DNA from: a virus | Taxonomy: Duplodnaviria > Heunggongvirae > Uroviricota > Caudoviricetes > Demerecviridae | Direction: 5' to 3' (one strand) | IMG/VR virus record: IMGVR_UViG_2974640449_000001 | Location: 242-64,241 of that record | DNA length: 64,000 nt | Shown: positions 1 to 10,178 of the stretch, piece after piece | Layout: each line of letters begins with the position of its first letter | Position numbering within the stretch: the stretch's first letter is position 1 | The notes under the pieces: generated by a model | Database searches by the model: none | What the model was told of the DNA's origin: nothing | What the model saw: only the letters and a program-made list of their open reading frames with translations | Position numbers and translations under genes: made by a program

Positions 1-222
1 CCTATAGAATTTGCACCTATAGAATTTGCACCTACATGTATCACTTTTGCACCAATCGGATTTGCACCCGCAGGCGCAGAGGATTAGAGATTACTAATAA
101 AGTATGCCCTAAATTAGGGTTCACTACATTAGGGATTTCTAATAGACGTCTGGATGGCTATACGTCCAGATGGCTAGAAGTCTAGAAGTCCAGATGGCTA
201 TACGTCCAGATGGCTAGAAGTC
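1..222. repeat. Short tandem repeat blocks
   Basis: TTTGCACC at 10, 25, 46 and 61; exact 30-bp duplicate GATGGCTATACGTCCAGATGGCTAGAAGTC at 153-182 and 193-222. Confidence 0.9.
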
Positions 223-245
223 CGTATGCCATACCGTATAAAATA

Positions 246-261
246 TGGCACGATTTTTGCT
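246..261 (+). promoter_or_regulatory. sigma54 -24/-12 motif
   Basis: TGGCAC-GATTT-TTGCT matches TGGCAC-N5-TTGCW. Confidence 0.6.
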
Positions 262-271
262 TATTAAAAAG

Positions 272-342
272 TTATCCACAACTGTATATTTATACATGGC
301 TCTAAAACGCTCTATACAGAGTTATCCACAACCTTATCCACC
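272..342 (+). promoter_or_regulatory. DnaA boxes (x3)
   Basis: TTATCCACA at 272-280 and 322-330, TTATCCACC at 334-342. Confidence 0.75.
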
Positions 343-351
343 GCAAAACTA

Positions 352-367
352 CTGTATATTTATACAG
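352..367. promoter_or_regulatory. LexA (SOS) box; a one-mismatch copy lies at 282-297
   Basis: CTGTATATTTATACAG fits CTGT-N8(AT)-ACAG. Confidence 0.7.
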
Positions 368-492
368 TGCTTTTCAGGTAGCAGATTATTCCGAATACCG
401 TTTAAAGCTCTTGTAAGCCTCGCTAACAGCATCCTAGCGTTGTAGCAATACCCTAGCAAGGGGTAAGCCCTAAACAGCCCACACGTAGTACA

Positions 493-508
493 TGCAAGAA
501 CCATGCCA
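493..508 (-). promoter_or_regulatory. sigma54 -24/-12 motif (convergent with 246-261)
   Basis: Minus strand TGGCAT-GGTTC-TTGCA. Confidence 0.55.
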
Positions 509-529
509 ACCTGCCTGACGGGCGCGCCG

Positions 530-550
530 AAATGATAACTATTCTCATTT
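530..550. promoter_or_regulatory. Fur box
   Basis: AAATGATAACTATTCTCATTT fits the 7-1-7 Fur inverted repeat with 2 mismatches. Confidence 0.65.
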
Positions 551-583: not shown

Positions 584-610
584 AAACAAAACGGCGTACC
601 GTGACGCCGT
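584..610 (-). terminator. Rho-independent terminator of the leftward pre-early unit
   Basis: ACGGCGT-N6-ACGCCGT hairpin followed by a T-rich tract on the minus strand. Confidence 0.6.
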
Positions 611-751
611 AACAGTTTTAATTTTTTAGTCGCTCTACTACCCAATCGCAGCGGCGGTCTAACTTATCTAATTTTTCGTCAATAACTCGCTGATTCTCTA
701 GTATCAGCTTTTGATTGTTAACGACTAGCTGCAACAGCTCTATAATCTTTT

Positions 752-976
752 TCATCGCGGCTCAAAATCTTTTACTATTTCTAGAAATTCACGGATAGTA
801 ATTCCATCGCATCGTATTTCTTCATCCGAGTGTTGAGTATGGCGTACTGTAAACTTGTCGTATTCTACTTGCTCAATTTCTGAGACTAGCACACCTTTAT
901 AGTATAAACCACGTTTTTTGTGTGGCTCATAAACTTGTTGCAAGAATGATACTAACATTTCACTAGGTCTTAACAT
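752..976 (-). CDS. Pre-early hypothetical protein
   Basis: 74-aa ORF, translationally coupled to 976..1218. Confidence 0.7.
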   Translation of the reverse strand: MLRPSEMLVSFLQQVYEPHKKRGLYYKGVLVSEIEQVEYDKFTVRHTQHSDEEIRCDGITIREFLEIVKDFEPR

Positions 977-1218
977 TAGTCTATCCCCTGTTCACTGATA
1001 AACTCACCTATAGCAAACATGCGCTCGCTATCGTTCGGGTAAGCGTCTGAATCAGCCATTTCAACAATAATAGCTAAATTAGATAAGCCTTGTTTAGCGA
1101 TTACTAAATCACGGAGCATGTTTTGAGTTACTACGTCTAGCGGATTATGTATCAAACGTGTATTGAGCATATGCTCAATACGTGCTAGTGCTTCCTGACT
1201 TTGTTTTATAGTAGCCAT
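976..1218 (-). CDS. Pre-early hypothetical protein
   Basis: 80-aa ORF with 1-nt stop/start overlaps on both sides. Confidence 0.75.
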   Translation of the reverse strand: MATIKQSQEALARIEHMLNTRLIHNPLDVVTQNMLRDLVIAKQGLSNLAIIVEMADSDAYPNDSERMFAIGEFISEQGID

Positions 1219-1412
1219 TACCAGGTAGCCTCCAATTGATAAAGCTTCTCAATTACATCGAATTGCTCGCCTTGCTCATTTTGCCAAACTTGCCCAAATT
1301 CGGTGTTTTCTACGTGCTTCATTGCCATAGGTATTGTGTAATATTGCATTTCCCCCATAAATGCAATATTACACATCCAGACTTGCCCTAGGGTTTCGAC
1401 ATGTACTTTCAT
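1218..1412 (-). CDS. Pre-early hypothetical protein
   Basis: 64-aa ORF, GGAGG SD upstream. Confidence 0.75.
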   Translation of the reverse strand: MKVHVETLGQVWMCNIAFMGEMQYYTIPMAMKHVENTEFGQVWQNEQGEQFDVIEKLYQLEATW

Positions 1413-1580
1413 TTTTTAGCCTCCATTAGCTCGCCTAATGAGATTACTATAACCATTGCTAGAAATGCTCCAGTCATTTTTCAATCACCAAAATTTTGTT
1501 ATAGTCCATACGTACAGTAAAAAACGGCTTGCCGTTTCTAACCGCCCACAATAGGGCGGTAGCGTAGTTGTCAAACTCCA

Positions 1581-1901
1581 TTAGACTTTTAACCAACCAT
1601 TAACAAACGTTGCGCCTTCATAAATAGAACGCCATGTTAATAAATCAGCTCTAGCGTATTGAAAAAGCATACCGCCATTAGTTGCGCCCTTAGCAAAAGC
1701 AATGGCATATGTCAATACTTTTGCTTTTAAAATTTCTTCGACTGACTCAAACAAACTAATATGGGTTGTCAGGTCAAAATGATACTCTTTGTTTGACAAA
1801 AAGCATTGCGCCATTTCCATGCGCTTGCTGATAGAAGTGTCAGCATTCAATTGGTAAGCCGTGCTTACTACTGGAGTAGTTAGATATTGTTTGTATTCCA
1901 T
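1581..1901 (-). CDS. Pre-early hypothetical protein
   Basis: 106-aa ORF, GAGG SD upstream, hairpins downstream. Confidence 0.75.
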   Translation of the reverse strand: MEYKQYLTTPVVSTAYQLNADTSISKRMEMAQCFLSNKEYHFDLTTHISLFESVEEILKAKVLTYAIAFAKGATNGGMLFQYARADLLTWRSIYEGATFVNGWLKV

Positions 1902-1960
1902 TTTGTTGCCCTCGCTTTCTAGCGGTAGTTAGTGGGGACTTTCGTCCCCCCGTTGATTAA

Positions 1961-2344
1961 TTAGTGCGCCATAATGCAATCAGGGTTTTCCCCGATTACC
2001 GTATATTCTTCAATCGCACGCTTACCAACACTTTCCCAAGATTGGTCATTTTTTGTTTTATTAGCTACACCGTGTAGGTAATAGCCGTTACCAGTATCAC
2101 GCTCTAATGAGAATGGTTTACCCATATCAAAAGCATTATTATAAAAGTGATGTTCCCAAGTACCTTCGACATCAAACCAGCGCCACATATAATGCTCGAA
2201 CATAGCTTTCATTTTGTCTAGTGCTAGCTGACATTCAACCTCGCTGATAATATCAGCCTCAAAACCGTTGCGAATAATGGCAACGGCTTTATTCCAACCT
2301 AGTGAATCAATGGTATCAGACAAGACAAGAAAATCAATTTTCAT
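1961..2344 (-). CDS. Pre-early hypothetical protein (start revised to MKIDF)
   Basis: GAGG SD before the ATG at 2344; promoter at 2407-2435. Confidence 0.7.
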   Translation of the reverse strand: MKIDFLVLSDTIDSLGWNKAVAIIRNGFEADIISEVECQLALDKMKAMFEHYMWRWFDVEGTWEHHFYNNAFDMGKPFSLERDTGNGYYLHGVANKTKNDQSWESVGKRAIEEYTVIGENPDCIMAH

Positions 2345-2406
2345 GGTAAAACCTCTCGCCAAAATCGGTGGCGGTATCCGTTTAGGCATCAATTGCCTAG
2401 GTCTTT

Positions 2407-2453
2407 ATAATACTAAAACCTAGGCAGGATGTAAAGTGATTTAGCTCACATTT
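2407..2453 (-). promoter_or_regulatory. sigma70 promoter with overlapping CRP-like site
   Basis: TTTACA-N17-TATTAT; TAAAGTGATTTAGCTCACATTT (2432-2453) matches 18/22 of the CRP consensus. Confidence 0.6.
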
Positions 2454-2773
2454 TACGATGTATAGTGAAAATCTACTTGGTCTATACCAATTTCACGCCA
2501 TACCATAGAACTTGTTTCAAGTCCATAGTTATCTAGCATATCTGATAAATTGGCTAGTTCGTCTAGGTCGCAATAGCCCTCGATACCCATATCAGAGTTA
2601 TAGAACATCATACCGTAGGCAGGATGAATCATAACGGCTAACTGAGAATCGTTATCAATATACCATATGGTATTTTCAGGGTCTTCATTAAATGCGTTCC
2701 CGTCTTCCTTAGTAACAAGGATTATTGAGTCTAGACTCAATAGTGTTGGTGTTTCGGTACAGTTAAAAGCCAT
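2453..2773 (-). CDS. Pre-early acidic hypothetical protein (start revised to MAFNC)
   Basis: GGAG SD before the ATG at 2773. Confidence 0.75.
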   Translation of the reverse strand: MAFNCTETPTLLSLDSIILVTKEDGNAFNEDPENTIWYIDNDSQLAVMIHPAYGMMFYNSDMGIEGYCDLDELANLSDMLDNYGLETSSMVWREIGIDQVDFHYTS

Positions 2774-2825
2774 TATTTCAATCTCCAATACGGGTAAAAA
2801 CCTACCGCCATAGCGGTAATAAACA

Positions 2826-2951
2826 TTACTGATTCAAACATACTATGCCTACCTTGTCAAATAGTTTTTTCATGGTAGAAGCCGAGGCGATAAACTCGCC
2901 AGTGTCGATACTTACACACCACCAAATTACATCAAAGAAAATACGATACAT
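2826..2951 (-). CDS. Small 41-aa pre-early ORF missing from the ORF track (MYRIFFDVIWWCVSIDTGEF...)
   Basis: GGAGG SD upstream of the ATG, open for 42 codons, followed by a hairpin plus T-tract. Confidence 0.55.
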   Translation of the reverse strand: MYRIFFDVIWWCVSIDTGEFIASASTMKKLFDKVGIVCLNQ

Positions 2952-3117
2952 TTTACCGCCTCCGTTGTTTGGGTAGGTCTATATTTACTCATATTCTAGC
3001 CCACTTGTCTAATAACATTTAGTTATATAAAACGATTCTGGCAACGCCAGGCGTTATAAGCGCTGTAAGCCATTCTGAGAGGTTCTAACAAAAAGCCTTA
3101 CTTTAATATGTCTAGGT

Positions 3118-3393
3118 TGTGGATAACCGCTCACAATGGATTCTAGGGGCAGGAAACGCCATTCTATATCGGATAAGCTGTGATTTAGGGTAGATAACTT
3201 CCATTTTCCTGTTGATAAGTTGTGGATATACAGTAGATAACCAGTATTATTAGAGATTGCTAATGTGAATAAGTCTGTTGATAAAAAGTTGGCACGAAAA
3301 TTTCCATAGAACAAAGTCAAATAAAAATTCGCTATATAATATAAACAAAAATTCTTTGACAAATAAAAATCCTTCGTTCTAGTTCTATTCACA
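3118..3393 (-). promoter_or_regulatory. Array of DnaA-box-like 9-mers
   Basis: TGTGGATAA 3118, TGTTGATAA 3210, TGTGGATAT 3221, TGTGAATAA 3264, TGTTGATAA ~3277, plus weaker xGTAGATAA copies, all co-oriented; one opposite-orientation CTATTCACA near 3385. Confidence 0.65.
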
Positions 3394-3395
3394 AA

Positions 3396-3413
3396 AGTGC
3401 ATGAATATGCAGT
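3396..3413. promoter_or_regulatory. ArgR (ARG) box-like palindrome
   Basis: AGTGCATGAATATGCAGT fits TGMAT-N4-ATKCA. Confidence 0.5.
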
Positions 3414-3650
3414 TTTTAGGGCAAAAGTGCATAAACCATTTAGTAATGCAATGGTATGGCTAAGGGCTAAAATCGCTTAGAATCGCATACAGAGCGTTTT
3501 AAAGGTATGTATAAATATACAGTAGTTTTTAAGTTGGCATGATTTTTGAGGGTATGACAAAGTTCACATTTTATATATACAAGTTTGACTTTTCATTCTA
3601 GCTATGGTAGACGCGCGCCCGTTTCCTTATATTTATAGGGCAAAAATACC

Positions 3651-3875: not shown

Positions 3876-4002
3876 GGAATATGTGATTTGACCCATTGCT
3901 TACTGGACTGTTTAACGAGTGTTAACCGTTAACCGATTCATAACGAGTCGGTTAACTGAGAAACACTCTCATTTAAACTAACCTATTAAGAGGAAAAATA
4001 TC

Positions 4003-8024: not shown

Positions 8025-8043
8025 AATGAGACTAGTTCTCATT
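8025..8043. promoter_or_regulatory. Fur-box-like site near the predicted genome terminus
   Basis: AATGAGACTAGTTCTCATT followed by TGC. Confidence 0.5.
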
Positions 8044-8234
8044 TGCATATAGGGGTACACCCCCCAACACGTAACCATTTTAAATTTTTCAAGATTACCT
8101 AAAGGTGCTATTATAAAATAAAATTTTTAAAAATTTCGAAAAACGGATAAGGTGCTTAGTAAATGCATTTTAGCTTTTGGGGGAAAATACGAAAAGCAGA
8201 TACTAAAGCCCCGACTTATTCGCCGGGGTCTTGC

Positions 8235-10178
8235 CTAAGCCGTGCCTGTAATATAAAAACCGAAACGTACTTCTGGAATTTTATACAATACTTCACGTTC
8301 GTCTAATCTATTATAGTATGTGTTACGTCCCCACTCATTTGCAAGTATCTGTGCATTAGTCAGTTTGTAATATCCAACTAACTCTAGCTCATTCCTTGCC
8401 CAGTTTACACGTACCTTATACTGTATACGAATAGCTTGCATTTTATTGCCAGAACTTGACTGCGGCCACCAGCTATTACCGATTCTGCCCTCACTATGTC
8501 GAGACAGGGATACATCTCTAAGTACACTATATCCTAGATTACCAATAAGTACTTCCGTATCTGGTTCATCGCGCATAAATGTAGTAAGTCTTAAAGCTGA
8601 CCAGCCTGCAAAACCATCTATTTTTGTTTGCATACTTGCCTTTTTACCTGCAATCGTGCTGCTCGCCTCCCCCTTCACAAATAGTGGGCTAATATGTGCG
8701 GTTAGGTAGTTCTTGCCAGTGCTGCCTGGTGGTAGTTTGATTCTCTGCTTGACTACTTCTCTATAATAATATCCCACATCATCTGGGTTATATATAGTGA
8801 TACGAGGCCCACTGAAAGTCTGCTTAGTAAACTTAGCACCTTGTTTTAGTTGTGCAAATGTTTTTGTTTCCGCCGGGAAGACAGCTGTCACTGCCGAATC
8901 ACCTCCTAGTATGAAAGGTGTGTATTTTCTAGCCTTAGAAGCTATTAAGTATTCACCTTTATTTCCTTTATATTTAATTTCATTTGCCGAGAAGTCTAGA
9001 GATATATCAGTGCCTATCAGCGCCGATGGTGTATGTACTAGCGGTAGTGGATGATCATAGAATGGGTTAACATAGTTAGCGTTCCATGTCTTATCTGCAC
9101 TAGCAGTAAAAGAGTGTAGGAACGGATAATCAGCCAATTGCTGTAACGACAATCCTTTTACTAGCTTGTCGAAAAACTCATGTTTAACATGTCTAACGTC
9201 CTTACTCTGTACATTAGTTTCATTAGGTGCTGGGTCAGATATTAGCATACCATTCTTCATTGCTAGGTCTCCAACTATCATATCCTCCCTAGAAATTTTA
9301 ATACCATCTTGAATCGGTGGCTTAACATGCTCTAAGTTATTCTGAGAATTATATTTTACATTAAGTACATAGACTCTGATTTTGTAATTATAAGTACCTG
9401 GTTTAGTAGGAGAGTAGGTTATTACTTTTGGTGGAACTTTATCAGTGCTACGAATCCAGTTCTCTGAAATACCTCCTGAGCCAAATAAGCTAATAAGGTT
9501 CCTAGTAGGGTTGCTATAGCTAGCTGATGTACTTCTTGAGGCTGTCTTTGAAATATCTGCTGTTCTATAATATTGATAACCATATTTATCATCTTTTTGT
9601 AACCCAGATACGCTCCATACACCAGTTCTATCCACTGCTACCTTAACACCTTGGTCTACCGTGTTGTCAGCGCTATCTAATGCTAGCTTGTACAGAGTTA
9701 GTGGATCCCAATGCCCATATATTTGAGATGTATTAGGTACTGGGCTTCTAGGGTAAGGTGAGGTACCGTCTGCAAAGCCACCCCCGTGAAAGTTGCCAAC
9801 AAATAAGCTGAACACACTAGCTTTAGCACTTCTAGAGTTGTATGCACCTAATGGTGAGTGTAAAACTCTATCTGGGTAGTATGCTACCTTAGTAGCAAAC
9901 ATAATATTTTTCTGGTTCATATAGTCCCATACTTTTTGTGGTACTATAGGCTCATAGTAGTGTGTATATCTTCCATCAGTAGTTATACCAGGACCAGTTC
10001 TCAAGAACCTCCATTGAGTAATCTCTATAACATCATATATTGCTAAGTATGGTATATCTGAGTGAAATAGTGTTGAAGCTATAGGTGCTCCGTGAAGTTG
10101 TGAAATAGACTCATTACCACTAGTTACGTGCAGCAGCGGTCTATTATCTGAGGGCTTTCTGCCCATAAAAAGTGCCAT
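8235..10178 (-). CDS. oad: Receptor-binding protein (T5 pb5/Oad-like)
   Basis: N-terminus MALFMGRK...STLFHSD resembles pb5; about 647 aa; divergent from terS; GGAGG SD before 10178. Confidence 0.8.
   Translation of the reverse strand: MALFMGRKPSDNRPLLHVTSGNESISQLHGAPIASTLFHSDIPYLAIYDVIEITQWRFLRTGPGITTDGRYTHYYEPIVPQKVWDYMNQKNIMFATKVAYYPDRVLHSPLGAYNSRSAKASVFSLFVGNFHGGGFADGTSPYPRSPVPNTSQIYGHWDPLTLYKLALDSADNTVDQGVKVAVDRTGVWSVSGLQKDDKYGYQYYRTADISKTASRSTSASYSNPTRNLISLFGSGGISENWIRSTDKVPPKVITYSPTKPGTYNYKIRVYVLNVKYNSQNNLEHVKPPIQDGIKISREDMIVGDLAMKNGMLISDPAPNETNVQSKDVRHVKHEFFDKLVKGLSLQQLADYPFLHSFTASADKTWNANYVNPFYDHPLPLVHTPSALIGTDISLDFSANEIKYKGNKGEYLIASKARKYTPFILGGDSAVTAVFPAETKTFAQLKQGAKFTKQTFSGPRITIYNPDDVGYYYREVVKQRIKLPPGSTGKNYLTAHISPLFVKGEASSTIAGKKASMQTKIDGFAGWSALRLTTFMRDEPDTEVLIGNLGYSVLRDVSLSRHSEGRIGNSWWPQSSSGNKMQAIRIQYKVRVNWARNELELVGYYKLTNAQILANEWGRNTYYNRLDEREVLYKIPEVRFGFYITGTA

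Follow-up and report, generated by a model that had tools for sequence, protein, structure and literature searches.

The 64,000-nucleotide stretch of phage DNA analysed here (the window; bases 242–64,241 of the 128,241-bp virus record IMGVR_UViG_2974640449_000001, which has direct terminal repeats) carries, at positions 246–550, a non-coding cluster of sequences resembling the binding sites of the host proteins DnaA, LexA, Fur and sigma-54 RNA polymerase. This cluster is very probably the Vibrio-phage counterpart of Repeat Region 3 (RR3) of phage T5, that is, of IRD'-spacer-IRC' with its flanking palindromes. An initial annotation, made from the sequence alone, had taken the DNA to be that of a lytic T5-like phage and had guessed at the T5 injection-stop region; the nearest relatives are indeed T5-like Vibrio phages of the Demerecviridae (pVp-1, VF16, VPT02 and the Thalassavirus group), and both position and sequence support homology to the T5 repeat region. 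The interpretation offered there, a panel of tight host-protein sites that anchors or blocks the DNA, titrates host regulators or samples host state, is partly supported as a whole.

Correspondence to Repeat Region 3 of T5

Measured on the full record, the direct terminal repeat is 8,301 bp long and ends at window position 8060. VF16, phi3 and T5 have a gene order in common, in which dmp, A1 and A2, read leftward, are followed by a divergent non-coding region, small genes read rightward, a non-coding block and the repeat border (the VF16 termini were determined by PhageTerm). The record is written in the orientation opposite to this order, and the cluster is the last non-coding block before the repeat border. 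It occupies 0.905–0.941 of the repeat, compared with 0.920–0.933 for IRD'-spacer-IRC' in T5. The initial annotation had placed the window copy in the DNA that enters first; by the T5 convention it is instead the right-repeat copy, 487–791 bp from the physical, last-entering end, and it is an identical second copy, at record positions 120,427–120,731, that lies on the boundary between first-step and second-step transfer (FST/SST).

The RR3 elements of T5 annotated in GenBank entry AY587007 are IRD'-spacer-IRC', palindrome D and direct repeats C and D. An alignment of this phage with VF16, phi3, VCPH, T5, chee24, KpGranit and DU_PP_V brings into register a DnaA pair, a spacer, a second DnaA pair (3-bp spacing) and then a 16-bp palindrome, in which CTGTATA..T.TACAG is invariant throughout. 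Beyond these elements and its place in the terminal repeat, the cluster resembles T5 RR3 in having an inverted partner within the divergent region, repeats of the TTTGCAC type that span the repeat border, a GCGCAG nick motif and a Fur-like palindrome. The TTTGCACC repeats correspond to T5 direct repeat D (TGTCGGATTTGCACA), and in both phages they cross the border; next to the other repeat copy (record 119,941–128,241), two additional copies are found immediately beyond it. The GCGCAG motif at 70–80 lines up with the site annotated in T5 as the 7.9% single-strand nick (GCGCAGGG, T5 9661–9668), which is placed after the last copy of direct repeat D; from its position and sequence we infer that it is a candidate nick site. 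The segment 269–316 stands to its inverted partner at 3488–3535 as IRD' stands to IRD in T5. That arm belongs to a divergent region of the RR1/RR2 type with DnaA boxes at 3118–3284, and a second pairing, 345–373 with 3501–3529, is 90% complementary.

The correspondence is not complete. Unlike in T5, the first DnaA pair is represented here by one box and a second LexA-like box, and there is one Fur-like palindrome rather than five or six, on the other side of the DnaA/LexA core. The two sigma-54-type sites, an array with an 8-bp period and palindromes of the form ATTAG-N6-CTAAT have no counterpart in T5. Across 2.9 million IMG/VR viral contigs, the composite of DnaA pair and LexA palindrome occurs only in contigs of 95–123 kb, and there were no matches among 185,579 prokaryote genomes, a result that rules out capture of a host regulatory region.

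Enrichment, conservation and coding potential of the cluster

Every motif that the initial annotation had listed is present where it was reported. Enrichment over shuffled sequence and conservation among related phages were among the checks that it had proposed. Against composition-matched shuffles each motif class is in excess: among 5000 dinucleotide-preserving shuffles of 236–560, the observed count was reached by none for perfect DnaA boxes, by two for LexA, by none for sigma-54 and by none for Fur, and not one shuffle held all four classes. Among the 325-bp intervals of the whole 128,241-bp genome, only the two terminal-repeat copies of the cluster hold three or four classes. The conservation result is mixed. 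The block 236–367 is well kept, with identities of 0.84–0.99 across 11 Vibrio-phage relatives, whereas two of the six sites, the minus-strand sigma-54 site (0.62) and the Fur-like box (0.56), are lineage-restricted and are missing from some Vibrio relatives. The panel is confined to first-step-transfer DNA.

Chance co-occurrence in AT-rich, repeat-rich DNA deserves consideration since DnaA boxes with one mismatch are frequent (0.48 expected in each region; 27 observed and 18 expected in the window). The shuffle tests, the genome-wide uniqueness of the cluster, its conservation across the family and its restriction to repeat regions leave this explanation with a negligible probability, and a chance origin of the panel is refuted.

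No gene lies between the motifs, as had been noted earlier, and the stretch 246–550 is non-coding. A 66-codon open reading frame at 245–445 (+) was considered as a gene and rejected: phi3 and JSF10 carry it with a frameshift, VCPH, VspSw_1 and PG07 lack it, and it is devoid of third-position bias (variable columns 35/27/29). A second open reading frame, at 349–645 (−), was also weighed for coding. A search of Rfam gave no family match and only two sub-threshold matches, to YenS at 15–179 (23.9 bits against a gathering score of 80) and to the rnk leader at 2358–2469, both of which were discarded. RNA folding between the convergent sigma-54 sites gave z values relative to shuffles of −1.85 for the plus strand and −3.43 for the minus strand, and palindromes and tandem repeats fold by themselves; covariation is unusable for RNA structure at the cluster because the block is too invariant.

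DnaA boxes and LexA-type palindromes

The presence of DnaA boxes in the T5 injection-stop region, mentioned in the initial annotation, has already been published for the family (Davison). In the lineage of this phage the first DnaA pair has been reduced to a single box, while it is intact in VCPH. As in datA and oriC of E. coli, consensus DnaA boxes are clustered in non-coding DNA and could in principle load several DnaA molecules. Unlike those loci, the cluster has only three boxes and no unwinding element, mixes them with LexA-, sigma-54- and Fur-type sites, and lies on the terminal repeat of a lytic phage. The divergent region (3118–3548) also contains DnaA-type boxes, five of them co-oriented at 3118–3284.

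The 20-mer at 350–369 matches the SOS consensus TACTGTATATATATACAGTA at 18 of 20 positions, and its CTGT-N8-ACAG core at 352–367, with an AT-rich centre, is perfect. Across 18 Demerecviridae this palindrome D, next to the IRD' boxes, hardly varies: CTGTATATTTATACAG is common to this phage, T5 and VCPH, and a variant with AA is found in RR3 of chee24 and KpGranit. All of the first 17 Demerecviridae scanned have, in RR3, a LexA-type palindrome with no more than one core mismatch, and most of them have one in Repeat Region 2 (RR2, the divergent region) too; RR3 of Aeromonas phage AhSzq-1 has one as well. In ten whole genomes, every match to CTGTAYA-NN-TRTACAG falls in RR2 or RR3 and none in the unique parts of about 100 kb. 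The likeness to SOS boxes of Gammaproteobacteria extends to the pattern of variation, which among phages affects mostly the central two positions. The palindrome differs from SOS boxes in that it overlaps no promoter recognisable in a sigma-70 search of 1–690, and in that its carrier is a virulent phage with no known use for SOS control.

Sigma-54-type sites

The two sigma-54-type sites do face each other, as first described (TGGCACGATTTTTGCT at 246–261 on the plus strand and TGGCATGGTTCTTGCA at 493–508 on the minus strand), and they are the only matches to TGGCA-N6-TTGCW in the 64 kb (0.18 expected; none of 100 shuffles reaches two). Positions 246–260 fit exactly the RpoN consensus tGGcacnnttttTGC obtained by chromatin immunoprecipitation (ChIP) in V. 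cholerae (PMC3439928). For the plus-strand site, conservation is 0.91 in the −24 element and 0.93 in the −12 element compared with 0.67 in the spacer; in phi3 and JSF10, −24 and −12 are kept while four of the five spacer bases differ. By sequence these candidate sites resemble V. cholerae RpoN promoters, such as flagellar promoters and that of glnA (PMC3439928), in the GG at −24, the GC at −12, the exact spacing, the T at −14 and the AT-rich spacer. They are unlike them in having no downstream gene and no recognised activator site, and in forming a face-to-face pair.

A strict 15-base form of the pattern was counted in seven genomes (this phage, VspSw_1, PG07, VCPH, VF16, phi3 and AhSzq-1), where 28 of 30 distinct sites fall between RR2 and RR3, an interval that makes up about 3% of each genome. 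There are no such sites in T5, KpGranit, chee24 or bombadil, and DU_PP_V has one, in its repeat region. Within the cluster one slot appears to be exchangeable: between the same conserved flanks, this phage, pVp-1, VF16, VPT02 and VCPH carry the minus-strand sigma-54 site, whereas VspSw_1 and PG07 carry a Fur-like palindrome.

Vibrio and Aeromonas hosts make heavy use of sigma-54, and sigma-54 RNA polymerase forms stable closed complexes without an activator. We know of no precedent for promoter-type sites that lack genes, are limited to first-injected DNA and occur only in phages of sigma-54-heavy hosts. Two degenerate sigma-54-like sites lie in the divergent region of this phage (TGGCACGAAAATTTCC at 3290 and TGGCATGATTTTTGAG at 3535). 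The corresponding sites of VCPH, VspSw_1 and pVp-1 are face-to-face inverted pairs (TTGGCA..TTGC / GCAA..TGCCAA), one of which, in VCPH, abuts a perfect LexA box.

Fur-like palindromes

The palindrome at 530–550 agrees with 14 of 19 positions of the E. coli Fur 19-mer and with 12 of 14 positions of the 7-1-7 core (TGATAAT-N-ATTATCA), and has two mismatches to AATGATAATNATTATCATT. In one half-site a C replaces the A, in keeping with TGAGAAT, the consensus of the phage family. The same family includes direct repeat C and palindromes E–J of T5 (for example AATGATAATGATTCTCATT). Enterobacterial phages and Pogseptimavirus have several copies and phages of the present type one, and RR3 of Thalassavirus has none; strict matches, in enterobacterial as in Vibrio phages, fall within RR3 or next to it, the match of DU_PP_V being unplaced.

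Related palindromes are found elsewhere in the repeat. One, AATGAGACTAGTTCTCATT at 8025–8043, lies 17–35 bp inside the outer repeat end, the leading physical terminus in T5 orientation, after dmp and its terminator, and the same or a near-identical palindrome occupies the equivalent place in VF16, phi3, VspSw_1 and PG07. Because the palindrome recurs at this terminus, a single binder could mark both ends of the first-step DNA. Another, AACTGAGAAACACTCTCATTT at 3954–3974, is placed some 30 nt upstream of the gene that opens the A2/A1 operon and is similar to the GTGAGAAACACTGTTATTTAA element found ahead of the DnaA pair in T5 IRC/IRC'. The RR3 position of that T5 element is occupied in Vibrio phages by the plus-strand sigma-54 site.

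A possible pad of host proteins and competing explanations

How T5 halts DNA entry at 8% of its genome and then restarts it has been an open question since the 1960s. Repeats and paired DnaA boxes have been described in 25 T5-like phages and proposed as the injection stop signal (Davison, bioRxiv 10.1101/866236); LexA, SOS and sigma factors go unmentioned in that preprint, and the matches shown to 'fur' are only to 'further'. Papers from 2023 and 2026 describe the T5 mechanism as still poorly understood, name only repeats, palindromes and DnaA boxes, and state that functional studies are lacking. A full-text literature search, with subscription-only papers outside its scope, found no paper tying T5-like phages to LexA, SOS, Fur or RpoN sites. 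The RR3 region and its DnaA boxes are already known; no searchable paper gives the LexA, Fur or sigma-54 reading. The initial annotation, which knew of no description of a multi-regulator version, agrees with a searchable literature that mentions only DnaA boxes there. If the other conserved palindromes are read as LexA and Fur sites and, in Vibrio and Aeromonas phages, as sigma-54 sites, a block of anonymous repeats becomes four named host candidates, each of which can be tested. The sigma-54 sites are the more unusual point; should they work as closed complexes without an activator, sigma-54 would have a new use.

We tentatively favour, at somewhat less than even odds, a pad, modular and adapted to the host, to which DNA-binding proteins already present in the host cell are recruited at the first-step transfer boundary. 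In this reading the cluster is a non-coding cis element; it is placed where the long terminal repeat has its inner end, immediately beyond the terminator that closes the pre-early small-gene operon. Its presumed binders (DnaA, LexA, Fur and sigma-54 holoenzyme) would be in the cell before infection and could bind tightly without new protein synthesis, so that the panel suits a signal acting while only the first-step DNA is inside. Host proteins may load onto the boundary copy and form a bulky nucleoprotein pad, which would hold, mark or insulate the DNA during the pause until phage A1 and A2 let transfer resume. It might do so by anchoring the DNA, an extension of Davison's DnaA model, by blocking RNA polymerase that leaves the adjacent operon toward DNA yet to enter, or by bridging the two inverted arms. 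Such a pad is favoured over ordinary gene regulation because the sites are limited to first-step DNA, their composition tracks host lineage and site types interchange in a fixed slot. That at least the DnaA and LexA sites are bound by host proteins is about as likely as not; that the pad itself causes or stabilises the pause seems unlikely. A more elaborate version, which we consider improbable, holds that T5-family phages achieve two-step injection with a modular, host-tuned landing pad, which retains the last-entering part of the first-step DNA by recruiting whichever host DNA proteins are abundant and bind tightly: DnaA and LexA everywhere, Fur arrays in enteric hosts and sigma-54 polymerase closed complexes in Vibrio and Aeromonas. 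The LexA sites would then couple release to the SOS signal arising from A1-driven degradation of host DNA, and the remaining genome would enter only after loss of the host chromosome. Titration of host regulators, also suggested initially, is unlikely given that T5-type phages destroy host DNA within minutes.

Several observations weigh against a host-protein pad. Binding by host proteins is, for this phage as for T5, a prediction; RR3 as an injection stop signal is itself a proposal; and cytoplasmic proteins have no obvious means of halting DNA entry. The segment 298–321, which matches no recognised operator, is as conserved (0.85) as the host-type motifs, and the imperfect LexA copy at 282–297 keeps its core mismatch in nine Vibrio phages. 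Sigma-54 cannot be essential to a mechanism common to the family because its sites are missing from enterobacterial relatives, and the same holds for the minus-strand sigma-54 site and the Fur box, which are missing from some Vibrio relatives. The sigma-54 counts are moreover inflated, since three matches in VspSw_1 (record 84425, 84897 and 85121) are identical TGGCATGATTATTGC sequences, each in antisense orientation where small pre-early genes that are paralogues meet at a TAA-tc-ATG junction, and are not independent. Finally, the Fur-like family has the consensus AATGAKAAT-N-ATTMTCATT, with a half-site that often carries G where Fur prefers T (TGAGAAT over TGATAAT), and it also occurs near the leading terminus (8025–8043) and just upstream of the A2-side operon (3954–3974), as operators of a phage repressor might.

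These last points lead to a serious rival, binding by phage proteins. The boxes and palindromes could be operators for pre-early phage proteins, such as A2 or a small protein, that only resemble or have converged on host operators, with host proteins playing no part. Annotations and literature text describe A2 as a DNA-binding protein needed for second-step transfer, the distribution of TGAGAA-type palindromes over the leading terminus, RR3 and the A2-side operon would suit a phage regulator, as would the G in the consensus half-site, and the equal conservation of non-operator sequence in the block fits as well. Set against this, four unrelated classes each come close to a different host consensus (DnaA 9/9, LexA 18/20 and an exact match to the RpoN ChIP motif), the sigma-54 sites follow host lineage and not the phage protein set, and the LexA palindrome reads the same in phages of E. 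coli and of Vibrio. Searches of the first-step-transfer proteins against Pfam yielded no domain apart from one sub-threshold SPASM match, and so none that suggests such specificity; the same search gave no sign of a phage-encoded sigma-54 activator or another recognisable DNA-binding domain among these proteins. We regard phage operators as an unlikely explanation, if a weighty one; were no host protein to bind, phage operators that mimic four host consensus sequences would still be of note.

Control of transcription is a less probable reading. Here, convergent sigma-54 promoters would make non-coding RNAs or read-through across the border, under repression by DnaA, LexA and Fur according to host state. 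The footprint is promoter-like, with −24 and −12 kept and the spacer free; relative to the plus-strand site, the DnaA and LexA boxes fall at about +1 to +95 (the LexA box about 80–95 nt downstream of the start predicted for that site); the terminator at 591–610 is bidirectional; and in VspSw_1 and PG07 a co-directional intergenic sigma-54 site precedes a small gene. The minus-strand RNA also folds better than shuffles (z −3.4), but such a signal is expected from palindromes and repeats, the plus strand reaches only −1.85, and no Rfam family is matched. Neither sigma-54 site has an open reading frame downstream, no enhancer-binding protein was found by Pfam in first-step DNA and no activator site was recognised, host activator sites not having been scored, and the search of 1–690 found no sigma-70 promoter. 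T5 and its enterobacterial relatives, furthermore, keep DnaA, LexA and Fur sites without any sigma-54 site. A role in DNA metabolism, as a DnaA-dependent origin, as a site of recombination or circularisation between the repeats, or as a terminase or nicking signal that creates the terminal repeat, is more doubtful still. The DnaA-box pairs recall oriC, the cluster adjoins the repeat border, the repeats of direct repeat D type and the nick-site motif, and the window copy is 0.5–0.8 kb from a physical end; yet T5 origins map to the genome centre, T5 replication genes are not in the first-step DNA, and it is hard to see what LexA, Fur and sigma-54 motifs would do in packaging. Within 246–550 no AT-rich unwinding element lies next to the boxes, nor is there an AT-rich tract of the 13-mer type beside the DnaA boxes at 272–342, and a replication origin at the cluster is unlikely on these grounds and from the reported central position of T5 origins.

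Features of the cluster and its surroundings

Coordinates of the individual elements are collected below.

Table 1. Sequence features of the cluster, its flanks and its inverted partner, in window coordinates.
Feature	Position	Strand	Remarks
TTTGCACC direct repeats	1–70	+	Four copies in the window, three more in the preceding 241 bp
GCGCAG motif	70–80		Directly after the last TTTGCACC repeat; kept in Vibrio relatives
Tandem array, 8-bp period	143–222	+	Units TAGACGTC, CAGATGGC, TATACGTC, TAGAAGTC; Vibrio/Aeromonas-phage lineage only
TATAAAATA, then sigma-54-type −24/−12 element TGGCACGATTTTTGC	236–261	+	Conserved
DnaA box, consensus TTATCCACA	272–280	+	9/9; occupies the place of the T5 IRC' box pair
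LexA-like palindrome CTGTATATTTATACAT	282–297		One core mismatch
Block GGCTCTAAAACGCTCTATACAGAG	298–321	+	Conserved (0.85); no recognised host operator; part of the inverted repeat shared with 3488–3535
DnaA box pair TTATCCACA-ACC-TTATCCACC	322–342	+	Boxes at 322–330 and 334–342, 3 bp apart; hallmark of T5 IRD'/IRC'
Near-consensus LexA (SOS) box	350–369		Homologue of T5 palindrome D; CTGTATATTTATACAG at 352–367
Second sigma-54-type site, facing the first	493–508	−	Kept in pVp-1, VF16, VPT02 and VCPH
CGGGCGCGCC motif	517–527		Conserved; inverted copy at 3607–3620
Fur-box-like palindrome	530–550		Family of T5 direct repeat C and palindromes E–J
Terminator hairpin	591–610		Ends the small-gene operon (618–3392, minus strand); T-rich on both sides
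Inverted partner arm	3488–3535	−	81% complementary to 269–316 over 48 nt; LexA-like box at 3507–3522

Some of the repeats vary among relatives. Arrays with an 8-bp period of other sequence are present in pVp-1, VPT02 and JSF10, and a much longer one in Aeromonas phage AhSzq-1 (L041, 4940–5170). Palindromes of the ATTAGAGATTACTAAT type (ATTAG-N6-CTAAT) lie at 83–98, 128–143 and 3249–3264, and so in both repeat regions; in Cody, related ATTAGTGATCCCTA units form tandem repeats. The CGGGCGCGC motif (517–527 and 3607–3620) is likewise inverted between the two repeat regions, and occurs also in RR1 of chee24 (L005, about 883–895).

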